Positions 3,654 to 32,780 of a stretch of DNA of 64,000 nt are shown in pieces. Both the position numbers and the translations under genes were made by a program. The notes below the pieces were generated by a model. It saw only the letters and a program-made list of their open reading frames with translations, was not told the origin of the DNA and did no database searches. Each line of letters opens with the position of its first letter. The first letter of the stretch is position 1. Source of the stretch: a virus. The stretch is taken from IMG/VR virus record IMGVR_UViG_3300038560_000007, positions 1 to 64,000 of that record, one strand, 5' to 3'.

Positions 3654-3706
3654 GGGCGAAACGCGCTTCGGCGCGTCCACAGGTAAGTGCCTGTGCTGAT
3701 GAGCCC
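3654..3706 (+). ncRNA. Type II hammerhead ribozyme HH5; cleavage after C3677
   Basis: GGGC-GAAA-CGCGC ttcg GCGCG-TC^-CACAGG taagtg CCTGTG-CTGATGA-GCCC; stem II covaries (GGGC/GCCC). Confidence 0.95.
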
Positions 3707-3717
3707 AAGGAGGGCAC

Positions 3718-14092: not shown

Positions 14093-14412
14093 AGAAGTAT
14101 AGCCACGAGAAGAAAAAAAGACAGAAAGAAAGAAGGGCACGTGTCCGCTTACACCAGTATCCAGGATCCTCACGAGGGTCGGAACGTCGACTTTATGCTC
14201 GAGATTGGCATGGACGCAACCAACGCCTTCTTCAAGAACGCCACCCCCGATGATGTCCTCGGCGCCATTGAGTCCAACGAGGAGAAGTGGCCTCTCGAGA
14301 AGCTGATAGAGCTCCGTGACAAGCTCCAGGACGTGATCCTCCACGAGGCGGCGCAGACAGGTCCTGAGCGGCTCCGGCTCATGACCAACGACAGCTAACC
14401 CTTCCCTGAACC

Positions 14413-14514
14413 CCTGGCTAGAACGTCTCGGAAATCCAGTCTAGCTAACTGGCCTGGCCGACTGCAGTGATGGATTAGAATCCCTCTAATCGAGAGAGGC
14501 GCGTTCTAGTCAGG
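14413..14514 (+). ncRNA. Structured intergenic RNA element (CCTGGCT..CAGGTT closing-stem family)
   Basis: CCTGGCTAGAACG pairs with CGTTCTAGTCAGG; related stems at 19175 and 21187. Confidence 0.5.
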
Positions 14515-14535
14515 TTTTGAGGAGAAGGAGGGCAT

Positions 14536-15273
14536 ATGACCAGTCTCATGACTACCAAACTGGTAGTTTCACTAGATGAGTACCTTAGATCACGGACGAT
14601 GGCTGGTAGCCGTGTGCAGGTCACGAACGATCACATCGCGACGCACCTGAACGTAACAGTCGAGGCAGCAACCAAGGCACTGCAATTGCTCACGCGAATC
14701 GAGGGCTCAGGCCTTACCCGGATCAAGAGCCTGAACGGGAACGGGTACGAGTACAGGATGCCTGAGAAGTATCCATCAAGGCTAGGGGAGATGAGGAACG
14801 CTTTGCTCCGAGACGAGAAGCGCGAACAGGACTCAAGACGTCGAGGCCAGCTGACAGGTGAAATCCTGACCTGGATTAGGGAGCATCCTAACAAGATGCC
14901 CGCTTCGATTCGCATGATCGCCGAGGAGATCGAGGCCGATCCCAACTCAGTGGCGAACTGCCTGCTGAAGCTGTCGAGGAACGGCTTCATTGAGAGGTGT
15001 CCGATACAGTCAGGCTGGTATCAGATTCCGGCTATGCACGACGAGCTCGAGTCGCTGACTAAGCCACACGATTACCAGGAAGGCTCAACGACGCTAGCAG
15101 AGGTGCTTAGCATCGCGAAGCCTGAGCCCAGTGCGAGCGGCTATGCGCTTACTGAGCCTAGGTCCGCTCGAGTTCCCTACTGGCCTCACATCGAGATCGT
15201 CGCGGAAATGGAAGATGGATTCGTCGCTAAGGACGTAAACACCGCTAAGGCGTATAGGGTGACTGAGCTATGA
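14536..15273 (+). CDS. Putative double winged-HTH DNA-binding protein
   Basis: Two wHTH-like segments (VTNDHIATHLNVTVEAATKALQLL; SIRMIAEEIEADPNSVANCLLKLSRNGFIER). Confidence 0.55.
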   Translation: MTSLMTTKLVVSLDEYLRSRTMAGSRVQVTNDHIATHLNVTVEAATKALQLLTRIEGSGLTRIKSLNGNGYEYRMPEKYPSRLGEMRNALLRDEKREQDSRRRGQLTGEILTWIREHPNKMPASIRMIAEEIEADPNSVANCLLKLSRNGFIERCPIQSGWYQIPAMHDELESLTKPHDYQEGSTTLAEVLSIAKPEPSASGYALTEPRSARVPYWPHIEIVAEMEDGFVAKDVNTAKAYRVTEL

Positions 15274-18306: not shown

Positions 18307-19117
18307 AATGACTGAACTCACAGCTAGGATGCCCTGGGTAGAGCGACTCCAGCTACCAGTCGACTGCCAAGGGTTCATGTCCCATACGCCCTTGAAGGCC
18401 ATCTATCGGATGGCCAACAACCCACCAGTCGGCCTAGATGCCTATCGGTGTAAGAAGCACGCGTACTGGAAGTTCACCTCAGTCTCGAACCGGCGAGGCC
18501 CTCGTATCCTATGCTGGGCCCACCTCTGGAGCGAGATGCGAGGCACCATAGAGGACTGGACCCGCCTCAAGAAGTGGATGCGAGCACATCGAGACCCAGT
18601 CGCCTCGATCGATATGACAGCCTTTAACCGTGAACAGGCTGACATCGAGATCTGCATTCTCGCCTATGGCACCGTCAAAGGCTCCCGGGAGTTCTACATG
18701 CCTCGAGGTGAGATGGCTACGGACGCCTTTGACCGGGAGCTAGACGAGGCCTGGAATAGACTGACCCCTAATCAGCAGGCTGCAATCCTCGATGGAAGGT
18801 TCAGCATGAAGGTCGGGACCTGGACCGACGCTATGACGGGGAAGGTTCTACCATAATGGAGGGGACTTTGCAACACAGTGCGAAGAGAGGTCGGCCAGCC
18901 CTGTATGACTGGGACTACCTGATCGAGAGGTCCCTGAAGCACACGGAGGAGCATGACTTCGTTCAAGGCGAAAACTTCCTATGCACGCCAGACTCTTTCG
19001 CTTCCCTTGTCCGAAGGACCGCACGCGTTCGTCACCTAGACGCTGGCGTGAGCATCGATGGAGATCATGTATACTTCATCTTCCTCCCGGAAAGAAAAAG
19101 ATCCTAGCGTAGGGGCC

Positions 19118-19147
19118 TAGCTTTCCACATGAGTCTCGCTATATAAT
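19118..19147 (+). promoter_or_regulatory. Promoter P7 (drives non-coding structured RNA cluster)
   Basis: GGGGCC-TAGCTT-18 nt-TATAAT-AG. Confidence 0.75.
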
Positions 19148-19174
19148 AGACTTATAATTGAATTTGATAAAGCT

Positions 19175-19696
19175 CCTGGCTCGGACGTTGGGCGTATGCC
19201 TGGCCCCCCGTAGGCATGCGTTTGTTCTGCGAGGGCGTTCGAGCCAGGTTAAGCAGGGTGGTGGGGAGTAGTGACCCCCGAGACGCCTTACACTGAGACG
19301 TCGAAGTTGCATGGGAGCGGGTTTGATGACCTCGCCATGAGAGCCACCCGTCGACGGGCTCCTGGGCTGAAAGCCCGTGACGTTGGAGAAGGCGACACGG
19401 TCAAGTACGACAGGAGCCCACCAAAGTGAGTGCCTGCGATCCTCGGCGTTCGGGAACGAGCATCCGGATGGGTGGAGGTAAGGGCAGGGCGGTGGGCCGC
19501 CAGAGAAACCGCCCTGGAGGGTTCGAGTGAGGATGATCCTCGCCACCAGGCACTCACCCAAGCGCTCGACCTAGCAAGTCACGTACCCCATGCGTGCGCC
19601 GCGCCCCCCGATCGCGGCTGGCTGACCTAGGTCGAGTGAGGCCCTGGCCGGGAGATATGCGAGCTTCCCACGCTATGCTACCTCTCCTGACCAGGG
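19175..19696 (+). ncRNA. Cluster of six tandem folded RNA domains (unknown ncRNA or ncRNAs)
   Basis: Six consecutive closing stems of 7-14 bp; no credible RBS-led ORF; directly downstream of P7. Confidence 0.7.
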
Positions 19697-19820
19697 TACC
19701 TATATCTAGAGAGGACGGAAATGAAGATCGGTTGTTGGCCAAGCGTGGCACTGGGAGCTCTTGGAGGGCTCACAGTTCTCATGGGACTCAAGGTCTGGAA
19801 GACGATAAGGAGGTCGAAGG

Positions 19821-20591
19821 ATGCCGACCGTCTTGTGCGCGGAGTGCGGTAAGGCTGCGCCGTGCCCCGATGGACACTACGCAGTCGTAGACATCGCCGG
19901 GACGCAGATCGACTGGATCAAGAAGCTTCCGGAGACATCGTGGATTCCTGCCCTGAACTTGCTCAACGAACTGATCGGCATTGAGGCTAGCTATACGAAC
20001 ACGAACGAGAACGACGTTCAGTTCGGCTACAGACCCTACCCGCTAGGCACGTTCGGCAGCCTACTCATGACTGCTCGCGCGAACGTCCAACAGGGCAACT
20101 GGGCAAGGCCGCGCTTCCTCGAGGTCGGATGTGGCCCTGGTACCAAGCTCGTTCTGGCCAACAAGGTCTTCGGCCTCGAAGTCTCTGGCTTCGACGTTGA
20201 CGCGCAATACATCAAGGACGCTGCGGATCTCCTAGTCAGCCAGACACTCATAGACTTCCAGGTCAGGGTCGACGACGCAGAGGACTTCGACGACTATGGT
20301 CTGTTCGACATCGTCTTCCTGAATCGTCCACTGCGTGACTACGACCGCCAGCTCCAGCTGGAACAGCACGTCATGAGTCGAATGGGGAACGGGGCAGTCC
20401 TGATCCTCGCCAACTCGCTGACGCACCCTCCATACTGGAAGTGCCTACAGCAAGCAGTCGCTTGCTCTGTCTACCAGAAGACCTGTCGCTGTTACGAAGC
20501 CGAGAGCTATCTGACCTTTCCTGGAGACCAGGCTAACCTAGTGTCATGCAAGCTCTGTGGCCGAGTACTCTGGGCTACAGGACCCAGCTAG
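19821..20591 (+). CDS. Class I SAM-dependent methyltransferase with terminal Zn-ribbon motifs
   Basis: FLEVGCGPG, VSGFDVD, DDAEDF, FDIVFLNRP; CAEC and CKLC motifs. Confidence 0.85.
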   Translation: MPTVLCAECGKAAPCPDGHYAVVDIAGTQIDWIKKLPETSWIPALNLLNELIGIEASYTNTNENDVQFGYRPYPLGTFGSLLMTARANVQQGNWARPRFLEVGCGPGTKLVLANKVFGLEVSGFDVDAQYIKDAADLLVSQTLIDFQVRVDDAEDFDDYGLFDIVFLNRPLRDYDRQLQLEQHVMSRMGNGAVLILANSLTHPPYWKCLQQAVACSVYQKTCRCYEAESYLTFPGDQANLVSCKLCGRVLWATGPS

Positions 20592-20618
20592 GTCTTGAAA
20601 AAATCCTCATTGGGGGCC

Positions 20619-20648
20619 TTGATTTTTGCTTGAAGCCCCCTATATAAT
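20619..20648 (+). promoter_or_regulatory. Promoter P8
   Basis: GGGGCC-TTGATT-18 nt-TATAAT-AGTAGTAG. Confidence 0.75.
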
Positions 20649-20689
20649 AGTAGTAGAGGCAAACAATCCAGAGAGGGGCGACGTCTACA

Positions 20690-21175
20690 ATGGCGGGCGT
20701 TAAGGAAGCAGAGAAGAAGGTCGAAGAGAAGGCTGAAAAGGCCACCAAGCACAAGGTGCCCGAAGGTCACATCACTCCGGTCGAGGCTACTCATCGACTC
20801 AAGAAGGAGACCAACCCGAAGACCGGGAAGCCCTACGCCGAGGACAAGCTGACCAGCCAGCAGGTCTACACACTACTCCGCACGTCGGAGAGCAACGGCA
20901 TGCCGGTGAAGCACTTCACCCCAGACGGCAAGTCTCACAAGACTCGTCAGGTCGATGGCGAGGGCAACCTCATCTCGCGTCCCGGATTCAACTGGGACGA
21001 GCTCGCTGCGTGGTGGGCCGATCGTCCGGCGCGTGGATCCAAGAAGGCCAAGGACGAGGAGAAGAGCGGCGGCGAGGCCTCTGACGAGGCGGACGGCGAC
21101 GACTCCGAGGACGAGATCGACGAGGACGAGCTCGAGGACGACGGCGAAGAGGGCTCGCTCATCGAGGCCGAGTAG
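20690..21175 (+). CDS. Putative DNA-binding protein, divergent family A, acidic tail
   Basis: ITPVEATHRL...LTSQQVYTLLR; acidic tail ending EAE like 4907-5353. Confidence 0.6.
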   Translation: MAGVKEAEKKVEEKAEKATKHKVPEGHITPVEATHRLKKETNPKTGKPYAEDKLTSQQVYTLLRTSESNGMPVKHFTPDGKSHKTRQVDGEGNLISRPGFNWDELAAWWADRPARGSKKAKDEEKSGGEASDEADGDDSEDEIDEDELEDDGEEGSLIEAE

Positions 21176-21186
21176 TTCTCTGAACG

Positions 21187-21291
21187 CCTGGCTCGGGCGA
21201 CGTTACGAAGGACGAGAGCGGCATCCTAGGATACTGCCGGCTATGATAGAACCTCGTACCGATGTGTGGTCAGTGGAGGCTCCGAGCCAGG
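21187..21291 (+). ncRNA. Structured intergenic RNA element (CCTGGCT..CAGGTT family)
   Basis: CCTGGCTCGG pairs with CCGAGCCAGG; same TGAAC...TTTTGAGG flanks as the 14413 copy. Confidence 0.5.
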
Positions 21292-21326
21292 TTTTGAGGG
21301 AATTACCGGAAAGGAGGTGAATTAGG

Positions 21327-27138: not shown

Positions 27139-28041
27139 ATGTCTAGGTTCATCAAGTTCGCAGCCACGGTGGCTGCGATCGGCGGTCTCACGGGCTATGG
27201 CCTGATGGCGGCTAGCTCGGCAGGCGCAGCTACGGCTCATGCGTCCCTGGCCAAGCCTCTCGTAGTGGAAGGCGCTCCGGCCGAGACGACCTACCTGGCC
27301 GGCTACGCCACGATCAACGAAGGCGACAGCCACTTCTACGACTTCCGATCGAACATCAGCGTCCCGAGCCAGATGGCCTCCGGCGTTACGCCGGACTCTT
27401 TCGCAGCGGGTATCTCTCAGCAGGACCGAGAGAACGCGAGCGGCGAGACCGACTATACCACGGCGCTTGGCTGGGTCTGGGACGACACCTCGGGAGATGC
27501 GTGCGGAGCCAATACCTACACGCTGGAATACGGCGATGGGGACAGCTACGCCTACGTTCCGCTGAACGGAAGCGATCTGCGGGTAGTCCTAGTGACCGAC
27601 CCGGACACCGACCCGACTACCCAGGTGCCGATCTGCAACGCGAACCCGGTCGATACGTACCTGGAGCTGGAGTACGACGCCACCACGCATCACCTGCACT
27701 TCTATGAGGGCACCGCTTACAACAACAAGACTCTCATCGCAAGCTGCTACGTGCCAAGTGATGGACGCAGCTTCAACGTACTCGGCGTTGGTCTAGACAC
27801 GGCTGTGGACGGTACGAACGGTGCAGCGGCGCTGAACTCTGGCACCTTGGCATCCTTCGGCCGCGCTCGGTTCACCCTGAGCGATGGCAAGATCGGCAAG
27901 CTGCAGGCACTCAACCTGGAGCAGTTCGACGGCACCGAGTTCGGTGGTGCTCCGTCAGTCTCCAACCCGGCTACGCTGACCACGAGTGGTCTCGTCACCG
28001 GCGGCATCAGCGCGACTGGCTTCCACGTCGTCGCGCCGTAG
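27139..28041 (+). CDS. Secreted beta-rich protein with Sec-type signal peptide
   Basis: MSRFIKFAATVAAIGGLTGYGLMAASSAGA; Thr/Asp/Tyr-rich mature part. Confidence 0.65.
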   Translation: MSRFIKFAATVAAIGGLTGYGLMAASSAGAATAHASLAKPLVVEGAPAETTYLAGYATINEGDSHFYDFRSNISVPSQMASGVTPDSFAAGISQQDRENASGETDYTTALGWVWDDTSGDACGANTYTLEYGDGDSYAYVPLNGSDLRVVLVTDPDTDPTTQVPICNANPVDTYLELEYDATTHHLHFYEGTAYNNKTLIASCYVPSDGRSFNVLGVGLDTAVDGTNGAAALNSGTLASFGRARFTLSDGKIGKLQALNLEQFDGTEFGGAPSVSNPATLTTSGLVTGGISATGFHVVAP

Positions 28042-28051
28042 TAGCTAGCGT

Positions 28052-28096
28052 TCCAGGGTCAAGCTGGAAGCGAGAGCCTCCAGCTTGGCTCTGGGA
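28052..28096 (+). terminator. Long hairpin after secreted-protein gene
   Basis: TCCAGGGTCAAGCTGGA...TCCAGCTTGGCTCTGGGA inverted repeat. Confidence 0.5.
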
Positions 28097-28729
28097 TACT
28101 AGTTAACGGAAGTACGACATCGCCCACCGAGGGGTGAAGACTGGTAGCCATCAACACAGAAACTAACGAGTACATATTCGAGAGGCAGACCCACTGATGT
28201 CGCTGGTGACAGTCGAGATGGTCGAGGAGAGATCTTGCCCTGACTGCTGGAGTGGAACAAACGTGCCCTGCGTTCCGATTAGGAACGTAGCAGGCTCTAA
28301 GGAACTGTACGACCTCGACCGAATGTATCACGCAAGCAGGAGGTATGGGACAGGACAACGATGAGCATTGAGCAGGTAACAGGGCTGATGTTCATTGGTG
28401 TCGTGGTTCTCGCCGTTCTCTGGTACAGAATCCTCCTCAAGAAGTCGAACGTTCAACGGCTTGATAGGATCCCATACAACTACGCCATCTGCATATGTGG
28501 ACGGCACTACATTCGAGGCTGTAACCACAGCCGCGGAGTAGTCTCCACGTGGGTAGATGTACGTACCGGATTGCATTATCACCCAGACGGAAGCCCGGTG
28601 GAGCATCGATAATGTGGATAATACGAGGCCTAATAATTGACGCAGGTCTATTCAGCCTGATAGTAGCGGCCGGCACATATGGATGTGCCGGCCTTAAACA
28701 TCTTCGAGAGAAGAGAAAGGAACGGAGAG

Positions 28730-32105: not shown

Positions 32106-32657
32106 ATGGGTTTCAAGGTCGATGTTAGCGAGCGGGAAGCGGCTGCTGGCGACAGGTCATCACTCCCGATCGGCAAGTTCCACATGGCGATCACGAACGT
32201 CGAGACGGGCACTCCAGCACAGGGAGACAACGTCGGCAGGCCGATGCTCATCTTCGAGTTCACTGTTCAGGACTCGGACCTTACCTCAGTTCAGCTCCCC
32301 GACGCGAGCGGTAGGCTCCAGCCGCCAAAGCAGACGAACGACTTCGTCAACCGGAAGGACTTCGTCAACGCGATGTGCTGGGAGGGTGCCCTGTACACCA
32401 TCGTCAACATCCTCAAGGCGATGGGTAAGTACCAGGACTGCCTCGACAACCAGGGCAAGCTGGACATCCCGTCGGATCCAGAGTTCTACCTCGGCGAGCA
32501 GATGATCGTTCGTCGCGGCATCAACAAGAAGTCCCAGCAGGCGAACCCTGACAACCCGGACTACTGGGTCCAGGCTCAGGGCTTCTCGCCCGTCAAGGGA
32601 GCGGCGGCAGTGAGTGCTGGGGCGTCTAGCTCCGGCGAAGGGTCACTGCTTCCGTAG
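32106..32657 (+). CDS. Phage ssDNA-binding protein (DUF669-like OB fold)
   Basis: LPIGKFHMAITNVE...PMLIFEFTV; operon position. Confidence 0.7.
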   Translation: MGFKVDVSEREAAAGDRSSLPIGKFHMAITNVETGTPAQGDNVGRPMLIFEFTVQDSDLTSVQLPDASGRLQPPKQTNDFVNRKDFVNAMCWEGALYTIVNILKAMGKYQDCLDNQGKLDIPSDPEFYLGEQMIVRRGINKKSQQANPDNPDYWVQAQGFSPVKGAAAVSAGASSSGEGSLLP

Positions 32658-32708
32658 CGAGGTCGGCGGCCAGATGATTTTGGATGCCCTCCTTGCATCT
32701 GGCCGCCT

Positions 32709-32780
32709 CGGGAGGTAGCTTAATGGCAGAGCAGGCAGAGGCGCCACCATGGATCCGGGTTCGAGTCCCGGCCTCCCACG
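32709..32780 (+). tRNA. tRNA-like element: intact acceptor, D and T arms; no canonical anticodon stem; no encoded CCA
   Basis: C-GGGAGG TA GCTT AATGGCA GAGC ... CCGGG TTCGAGT CCCGG CCTCCC-A; positions 27-31/39-43 do not pair. Confidence 0.7.

Follow-up and report, generated by a model that had tools for sequence, protein, structure and literature searches.

The question raised by this locus is whether a stretch of about 520 nt, lying between a phage promoter and a methyltransferase gene, encodes one large RNA, several small RNAs, a structured leader or no functional product at all. The stretch (positions 19175-19696, hereafter the array) belongs to an uncultured peat-soil phage, and the window, meaning the whole 64,000-nt stretch of DNA that was analyzed, covers 64 kb from the start of an IMG/VR virus record of 79.6 kb (IMGVR_UViG_3300038560_000007; completeness estimate of 90%). 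A previous sequence-only reading had described six back-to-back folded RNA domains, interpreted as one large phage noncoding RNA (ncRNA) or, alternatively, as tRNA mimics or decoys that form a polycistron with C-rich small RNAs (sRNAs). Our analysis indicates that the array is noncoding, with a plus-strand RNA fold that is modular beyond chance. The reading that we favor, in which we place even confidence, is that it represents a functional, transcribed and modular ncRNA; it is probably cut into small stable RNAs, and an action of the C-rich loops of domains A and E like that of the mycobacterial 6C sRNA is much less certain, being proposed by analogy.

A noncoding array of stem-closed modules

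The six abutting stem-closed domains proposed for 19175-19696 were all recovered on the plus strand, each closing helix lying exactly where it had been placed. The minimum free energy (MFE) fold of 19170-19700 on the plus strand (-250.3 kcal/mol, z = -3.04, with 0/100 shuffles as good) reproduced the six abutting top-level domains, and the reverse complement of the same segment yielded z = -1.03. Domain A (19172-19254; z = -4.50, this and the following z-scores being those of domains folded singly) is closed by the helix CCUGGCUCGGACGU/GCGUUCGAGCCAGG (19175-19248) with a 3-bp outer extension, includes G-U pairs compatible with the plus strand only, and contains an inner 13-bp hairpin whose loop exposes CCCCCC (19204-19209). 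Domain B (19256-19349; z = -1.68, the weakest) has a 7-bp closing helix, GGGUGGU/GCCACCC, and a three-hairpin multibranch interior. Domain C (19356-19423; z = -3.65) has a 9-bp closing helix, GGGCUCCUG/CAGGAGCCC, and three small hairpins in a cloverleaf topology, that is, a four-way junction with a G:C terminal pair resembling G1:C72 of tRNA, followed by a single-stranded ACCA (19420-19423). Domain D (19426-19560; z = -3.17) combines an 11-bp closing helix, GUGAGUGCCUG/CAGGCACUCAC, with a branched interior, followed by CCA, and carries a G-rich, Shine-Dalgarno (SD)-like stretch, GGAUGGGUGGAGGUAAGGG, largely unpaired in the centroid fold. Domain E (19563-19638; z = -3.40) is closed by 12 bp, CGCUCGACCUAG/CUAGGUCGAGUG, and holds two hairpins, the second of which exposes CCCCCC in its loop (19604-19609). 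Domain F (19642-19696; z = -4.42) is closed by CCCUGGC.CGGGAGA/UCUCCUG.ACCAGGG, two 7-bp segments flanking a 1x1 mismatch; the CCUCUC of its 3' arm complements, as read from the sequence, a GAGAGG preceding the next open reading frame (ORF). The domains are separated by linkers of 3-7 nt (e.g. ACCAAA after C and CCAAG after D), so the ACCA and CCA reported after C and D are both present, as are the C-rich loops reported for two domains, which proved to be the CCCCCC apical loops of A and E.

The modularity of the array was evaluated with a strict architecture count, restricted to top-level domains of 40-160 nt closed by at least seven contiguous pairs. The array scored 5, domain A being missed only because it is closed by its 3-bp outer extension with a bulge. 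The mean count in 150 dinucleotide shuffles was 0.09 (maximum of 2), and among 198 other 531-nt windows of the same genome the count was 0 in 185, 1 in 12 and 2 in one. By GC-corrected MFE the array ranked third among about 450 windows of 531 nt, which is supportive but not unique. A raw tally of long-range helices of at least 9 bp was non-discriminating, and the closed-domain count was used instead. The G+C content of the array (64% vs ~57%) is a local maximum. A DNA-level reading based on CCWGG sites was discarded: the eight sites of the array compare with nine in another region, and the word is frequent throughout the genome.

None of the six frames of the array has the codon usage of the phage, the best of them scoring -0.014, whereas segments of genes score 0.307 ± 0.078 in their own frame. 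Its internal ORFs, a 140-aa minus-strand one (19139-19561) among them, showed no Pfam match above the curated cut-off; both results bear out the earlier proposal that the stretch is noncoding. The promoter described upstream of it ("P7" in the sequence-only reading; 19113-19163, plus strand), with a TAGCTT -35-like box and TATAAT, is real as a repeat: it is one of at least eight copies of a family (D6) that consists of TTGCTT or TAGCTT, about 17 nt and TATAAT, follows the pattern GGGCCTTGCTTT..N..TATATAATAG, and is distributed along the rightward arm at 1632, 4082, 4777, 11269, 14058, 19113, 20614 and 24597. The copy at 19113-19163 ends some 10-20 nt upstream of domain A. The ensuing leader of about 560 nt is exceptional in this phage, because the other promoter copies lie only about 25-35 nt before a start codon.

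No terminator-like site was found between the array and the methyltransferase gene. A possible hydrophobic 43-aa ORF (19721-19852, plus strand) lies directly 3' of the array, and it is a doubtful gene, with a codon-usage score of 0.024 vs 0.307 ± 0.078 for real phage genes and no family match. The first clear gene of the unit (19821-20591, plus strand) encodes a class I S-adenosylmethionine (SAM)-dependent methyltransferase (Pfam Methyltransf_31/25/11), is preceded by a strong AAGGAGG ribosome-binding site, and has homologues with 35-50% identity. Many contigs of soil phages encode such homologues. The protein has Cys pairs at its two termini, which suggest zinc-ribbon-like extensions around the class I SAM fold. 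The unit ends at a terminator-like hairpin with a T run (20604-20616, plus strand), just before the promoter copy at 20614-20664.

A covarying handle helix and the arrays of related phages

All or part of 19175-19696 is present in six DNA runs from peat or soil, and the sequencing runs listed as containing this DNA include none of RNA. The contigs from the DNA runs are short pieces of the same phage with a single difference, located outside the array, and they leave 19184-19695 uncovered and provide no strain variation usable for covariation. Neither the array nor the phage had a DNA-level match in the cultured-phage collection, and the DNA polymerase and helicase share at most ~30% identity with the proteins of cultured phages. 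The host is likely actinobacterial, because one phage ORF carries an Lsr2 dimerisation domain and the nearest cultured relatives of the helicase are from phages of Arthrobacter, Micrococcus, Rhodococcus and Gordonia. The genes run rightward up to ~40.3 kb. Searches of IMG/VR with single proteins (the methyltransferase, a 188-aa protein and the DNA polymerase) recovered no close relatives; the relatives considered here, cited by L numbers, were reached via the methyltransferase and helicase alignments.

The closing helix of domain A, CCUGGCUCGG/CCGAGCCAGG, recurs at 14413-14514 and 21187-21291, where it encloses unrelated interiors. The two paralogues define what we call the type-1 handle. That at 14402-14526 (plus strand; z = -4.17) forms an irregular long helix, composed of CCU/AGG, a G.G mismatch, AA:UU and a Y.Y mismatch, and then CCUGGCUAGAACG/CGUUCUAGUCAGG, and is located just upstream of the ribosome-binding site of the gene at 14536. 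That at 21176-21303 (plus strand) has the same closing helix as domain A and a different interior, and is flanked by the genes of an acidic 161-aa protein and a 122-aa protein. The gap syntenic to 21176 also contains stem-closed RNA in most relatives in which it was inspected (L013, L002, L118, L120, L129, L003, L008 and L113); this RNA begins in L013 and L002 with the closing helix of domain A, and ends in L008 and L113 with an anti-SD/SD hairpin. The irregular extension is common to the 14402 and 21176 copies and to L120, L129, L122, L116, L147 and L149; from the outside in it consists of CCU/AGG, a G.G mismatch, AA:UU, a pyrimidine mismatch and GU-CCUG...CAGG-GC. The acidic 161-aa protein (20690-21172), lysine-rich at its N-terminus and finishing in a long D/E tail (..EAE), has no family match; the context of its stop codon, GAGGCCGAGUAG/UAA, is kept in most relatives examined, and structured RNA modules follow there.

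An alignment (A5) of eight distinct type-1 handles from six phages showed compensatory changes in 15 of 24 pairs and 89.9% of cells paired, vs 30-52% with the partner slid and with 0/500 shuffles reaching it; A5 was partly retrieved by pattern (the CCUG/CAGG core plus flanks), and the covariation that counts is that of the outer columns 4-9 and inner columns 20-29. The covariance model built from A5 (R1) scored 53.2 bits at 14402-14526 and 58.2 bits at 21176-21303, and recovered members absent from the training set in L128, L122, L008 and L129. The plus-strand copies scored 25-45 bits above their own reverse complements, and the G-U pairs of the handle helices fit the plus strand only. By these comparative measures the type-1 handle is a real and new covarying RNA family. 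Domain A scored 16.7 bits (rough E ~0.07, marginal) over model positions 12-64, which correspond to the inner helix only, on par with the tandem units of L120 and L129, and domains B-F showed no match. Domain A is accordingly at best a peripheral relative of the handle family and probably not a full member, its exact helix identity with the copy at 21187 being a stronger tie than the R1 score.

Model R1 had no match in three mycobacterial genomes and a single marginal, chance-level match in 151 sampled Actinomycetes genomes. The flanked handle pattern had four matches in 185,579 species genomes, three of them being one orthologous mycobacterial gene end without the helix and due to chance, and in IMG/VR it added two true members, L147 and L149. 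The pattern CCTGGCTCGG..CCGAGCCRGG had 16 matches in IMG/VR, mostly of chance or coding-like nature in high-GC contigs.

Tandem stem-closed modules were also found in the ORF-free gaps of relatives: five in L120 (4882-5200), three in L129 (5069-5290) and at least five in L116 (2092-2525). The arrays of L013 and L002 have four modules each: a handle, a tRNA-like gene (called by ARAGORN but not by Rfam, and equipped with a true T-loop) and two closed domains. In related phages such elements stand alone or in tandem arrays of 2-5, in some cases with tRNA or tRNA-like genes alongside, and true tRNA genes lie beside the module gaps of L116, L125 and L126. The linkers that follow modules in relatives are often CCA-initial (CCAAAC, CCAGAC, CCAAGC), like ACCAAA and CCAAG here. 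In L120 and L129 the closing helices, GUCCUG-N...N-CAGGAC, covary between units, the linkers of ~5-10 nt have a (C/U)CAAAC-like core (e.g. AUCCAAAC and ACCCAGAC), and the arrays start directly after the stop codon of the acidic-protein gene. The three modules other than the handle that are shared by L013 (1124-1372) and L002 (2870-3122), i.e. the tRNA-like gene and two stem-closed domains, have no Rfam match and constitute a candidate new RNA family. Between these two phages the arrays are ~85% identical (estimated from the alignment), with 4 compensatory, 9 one-sided and 0 broken pairs, and the flanking proteins show 45-63% identity; that the RNA is better kept than the proteins around it points to selection on RNA structure, together with a rapid turnover of modules. 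Conservation of arrays is limited to near relatives, and the gap after the acidic-protein gene is highly variable in content.

Known RNA classes and competing explanations

The sequence-only reading had anticipated no confident match with ARAGORN or Rfam, and this was the case: ARAGORN detected no tRNA or transfer-messenger RNA in the window, and Rfam yielded no match at gathering score. At E up to 10, Rfam 15 gave only chance-level matches over 19050-19800 (E 1-4), with none to the tRNA model, so the array was not assigned to tRNA. It was right, too, that no domain has a standard D/T-loop placement. Neither the T-loop motif (UUCRA in a 7-nt hairpin loop) nor a D-loop elbow was found in the array, domain C included; UUCGA occurs only in helix A, as part of its 3' arm, and in D, where it does not lie in a hairpin. 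An NCCA following an acceptor-like stem was found only in C, the CCA of D being without a discriminator base. ROOL, GOLLD and other large Rfam ncRNAs were rejected for lack of a covariance-model match, and the self-cleaving ribozymes (hammerhead, twister, pistol, hatchet and others) for lack of both an Rfam match and a CUGANGA core in the array. An array of the kind found in type III toxin-antitoxin systems (ToxI-like), in which direct repeats of ~34-36 nt, nearly identical and arranged in tandem, precede a toxin gene, was likewise discarded, since no direct-repeat family runs across 19175-19696 and the downstream gene encodes a methyltransferase.

The C-rich loops are placed non-randomly. Only three C6 runs occur on the plus strand of the 40-kb rightward arm, where about 16 are expected from composition by rough arithmetic, and two of the three make up apical loops, at 19204 in A and at 19604 in E, a coincidence within 520 nt with a chance of ~5e-4 by similar arithmetic. 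In the mycobacterial 6C sRNA, C-rich loops bind G-rich ribosome-binding sites without a chaperone, and overexpression arrests growth (Mai et al. 2019, PMC6486639). The hairpins of A and E resemble 6C (PMC6486639) in their stability, in apical loops of six C and in the probable host phylum, and differ from it in not matching the 6C model at E up to 10 and in being placed within larger stem-closed modules ~400 nt apart. The earlier proposal of tRNA mimics or decoys and C-rich sRNAs is supported as to the C6 loops and their placement, whereas no domain was detected as tRNA-like. Its suggestion of decoys directed against defence nucleases found no support, nothing linking the array to such nucleases.

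Other described systems share parts of the architecture. The Y RNAs YrlA and YrlB, bound by Ro60/Rsr (Chen et al. 2014, PMC4201824, from which the definition of the motif GNCGAAN0-1G was taken), pair their 5' and 3' ends into a closing stem around an interior that varies, are encoded in tandem and in some cases include tRNA-like modules, a logic of conserved handle and variable cargo comparable to that of the handle family, whereas here there is no TROVE/Ro60 gene, no 5'-end motif, no D/T arms and no Rfam match. Membership in this class was rejected: PF05731 (TROVE/Ro60) was unmatched in the 79.6-kb record, the control genomes being matched, and the single instance of the motif in the array, at 19300, lies inside domain B and outside any closing stem or 5' end. 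For the type-1 handles that precede ribosome-binding sites, the closest described analogue appears to be the extended start-associated sequences (ESAS) of Cluster K mycobacteriophages, whose 17-bp half-sites are described as separated by spacers of 4-13 bp (Pope et al. 2011, PMC3203893). Like the handles at 14402 and 21176, the ESAS consist of conserved inverted repeats that are imperfect, flank a spacer of variable content and recur through an actinophage genome in one orientation, immediately upstream of translation starts (PMC3203893); the handles differ in sequence, in enclosing ~20-100 nt of folded cargo, in their G-U pairs and RNA-type covariation, and in occurring as gene-free tandems. 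The L120 handle shares with the mraW RNA motif (Rfam RF01746, Actinomycetota) the plan of 7 bp, 1x1, 2 bp, 1x1 and long stem, and its long stem contains the mraW alignment letters C-U-G..CCGA/UCGG..CAG. Nevertheless, it scored 22 bits vs a 50-bit cut-off, and this genome and five relatives had no match (whole-record E-values), so that membership was rejected and the likeness is a resemblance only. Finally, rnaC and rnaD (species 1 and 2) of phage T4 are small, stem-closed, stable non-tRNA RNAs, co-transcribed with a tRNA cluster and released by processing, and are not known to have a defined function. Relatives of the phage studied here similarly mix stem-closed modules with tRNA or tRNA-like genes; unlike rnaC and rnaD, with which it shares no sequence or model similarity, the array has no tRNA gene and forms, with its six modules, the leader of a protein-coding operon.

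We infer the transcription, processing and base-pairing targets of the array as follows. The promoter at 19113-19163 would start a transcript that continues into the methyltransferase operon, and its initial ~520 nt would form six independent modules by co-transcriptional folding. The long closing helices (9-15 bp, or >20 bp with the irregular extensions) and the single-stranded linkers would serve both as endonuclease sites and as protective ends, releasing the array from the mRNA as several small stable RNAs, of which at least A and E may pair via their CCCCCC loops with G-rich, ribosome-binding-site-like stretches of target mRNAs. The array would then be a lineage-specific case of a habit seen in a clade of uncultured, probably actinobacterial, soil phages, which place "handle and cargo" modules, tRNAs, tRNA-like genes and hammerheads between the genes of their early and middle operons. 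A bolder version, which we consider unlikely, is that the clade runs an undescribed handle-and-cargo system, in which the modules on operon transcripts are interchangeable, a host or phage factor recognizes and cuts CCUG...CAGG-type helices, and the array supplies a battery of effector RNAs for host takeover; among these would be an ACCA-ended cloverleaf and 6C mimics directed at the G-rich ribosome-binding sites of host mRNAs, which they would silence.

Several observations weigh against a functional, processed array. The evidence for the folds of domains B-F is entirely thermodynamic, derived from energy statistics, and is weak for B (z = -1.68). No homologue of B-F or of the whole array was found by blastn and nhmmer across all fetched loci; covariation across related phages, which had been suggested as a check, consequently bears on domain A, through its marginal match to a covarying handle helix, and not on B-F, which are orphans among the fetched relatives. 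In L002, L003, L008 and the other relatives examined, the region preceding the methyltransferase gene contains coding ORFs and no array. At its site the array is lineage-specific, young or mobile, because the syntenic space of relatives holds ORFs instead of it, and it could be dispensable. The pairing of CCUG with CAGG within the closing helices of A, C, D and F (4/6) was noted post hoc, and both are common words genome-wide. No phage-encoded RNase, RNA ligase or RNA-binding protein was recognized among the 66 ORFs of the rightward arm. With respect to the 6C-like step, the Rfam 6C model is unlisted at E up to 10, so that membership in that family was rejected, the presence of 6C-type hairpin loops with at least six C in A and E notwithstanding.

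An alternative is a structured 5' leader acting only in cis, whose helices near the 5' end would block 5'-end-dependent RNases and so stabilize the methyltransferase mRNA, with no small RNAs released; in a variant, competition between the CCUCUC of domain F and the GAGAGG before the 43-aa ORF may gate translation. The array and the operon do share one unit with no intervening terminator, handles at 14402, at 21176 and in relatives lie immediately before ribosome-binding sites, an anti-SD/SD hairpin ends the equivalent intergenic RNA of L008 and L113, and CCUCUC and GAGAGG are complementary in sequence. Yet a leader of 520 nt and six modules far exceeds the other leaders of the phage (~25-35 nt), relatives have the same methyltransferase gene without it, and their tandem modules also lie beside genes for tRNAs, which are processed RNAs; we consider the purely cis-acting leader unlikely. 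The array could instead be non-functional or selfish DNA, either a pile-up of hairpins resembling repetitive extragenic palindromes (REP) or miniature inverted-repeat transposable elements (MITE), or the decayed remnants of a tRNA cluster in an intergenic hot spot. Its absence from the syntenic site of relatives, the orphan status of B-F and the highly variable content of the neighboring gap would suit such an origin, which we nonetheless hold to be decidedly improbable: the modules are unlike one another in sequence and are not spanned by any direct-repeat family, the G-U pairs and the scores with R1 suggest that selection acts on the transcribed strand and not on DNA, the array has a promoter of its own, and the arrays of L013 and L002 outconserve their flanking genes with compensatory changes.

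It is also conceivable that modules C and D are tRNA mimics or minihelix decoys for RNase P, the CCA-adding enzyme or tRNA-targeting nucleases, acting by titration or guiding their own processing. Domain C, with its G:C terminal pair, 9-bp stem, cloverleaf topology and ACCA, and domain D, with its trailing CCA, invite this comparison, as do the CCA-initial linkers of relatives, the T-loop-bearing tRNA-like gene in the L013 and L002 arrays and the tRNA-like module at ~32709-32780 of the window; furthermore, RNase P cleaves a bacterial Y RNA that includes a tRNA-like domain, and CCA is added to this RNA (PMC4201824). However, ARAGORN and the Rfam tRNA model were blank, C has no T- or D-loop motif, the UUCGA of D is not in a hairpin, nothing resembles an anticodon loop, and a canonical NCCA in one of six domains has a chance of ~1 in 10. 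The decoy idea is accordingly weakly supported, and we deem mimicry quite unlikely. A single large ncRNA with a higher-order fold like ROOL or GOLLD, in which, for instance, the C6 loops contact G-rich strands of B and D, would be in keeping with a promoter-driven, phage-borne element of ~520 nt with linkers of 3-7 nt that brings together C-rich loops and unpaired G-rich stretches, and with the proximity of such RNAs to tRNA genes in relatives; ROOL and GOLLD also occur near tRNA genes. We regard it as very improbable, as no large RNA of Rfam matched, each domain is thermodynamically self-contained, and the number and identity of the modules vary between relatives. From the sequence-only reading, which offered one large ncRNA or a polycistron, the noncoding, promoter-adjacent and modular character of the array is retained. 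In the pair of relatives compared, the difference in module number (five units in L120, three in L129) favors independent modules over a single integrated fold, which may apply to this array as well.

Further structured RNA in the window and implications

Structured RNA was observed elsewhere in the window, always on the plus strand. Between 1203 and 7642, nine intergenic type II hammerhead-like motifs (CGAAAC..GUC..CUGAUGAG) were found as repeat families; the Rfam Hammerhead_II model scores four of the nine at 27-36 bits, slightly below its 37-bit cut-off, the best being 3654-3710 (E 2e-4). At 32651-32780, a 12-bp hairpin whose loop, AUGCCCUCCUUG, is complementary to the common ribosome-binding site of the phage is directly followed on its 3' side by a tRNA-like module (32709-32780) with an acceptor GGGAGG/CCUCCC, a D-arm-like UAGCUUAAUGGCAGAGCA and a T-arm CCGGGUUCGAGUCCCGG, which was not called by ARAGORN and has a weak nhmmer link to a tRNA-like stretch in L119 (E 0.001-0.006). 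A very strong, long and near-perfect hairpin, UAGCUAGCGUUCCAGGGUCAAGCUGGAAG...CUCCAGCUUGGCUCUGGGAUACUAGUUA, occupies 28041-28108 in a 319-nt ORF-poor gap, and the windows around it have the most negative GC-corrected folding energy of the genome.

Phage ncRNAs are poorly catalogued, and the array matches no entry of the RNA catalogue. With nine hammerhead-like motifs, three handle elements, a tRNA-like module and the six-module array, this phage looks unusually reliant on RNA structure for its early and middle transcripts. The handle family described by R1 is concrete and searchable, and lends itself to tests for partners that bind or cleave it. If the modules of the array are released and active, they would represent a rare phage precursor of multiple sRNAs in a probable actinobacterial host, and possibly a viral mimic of 6C.

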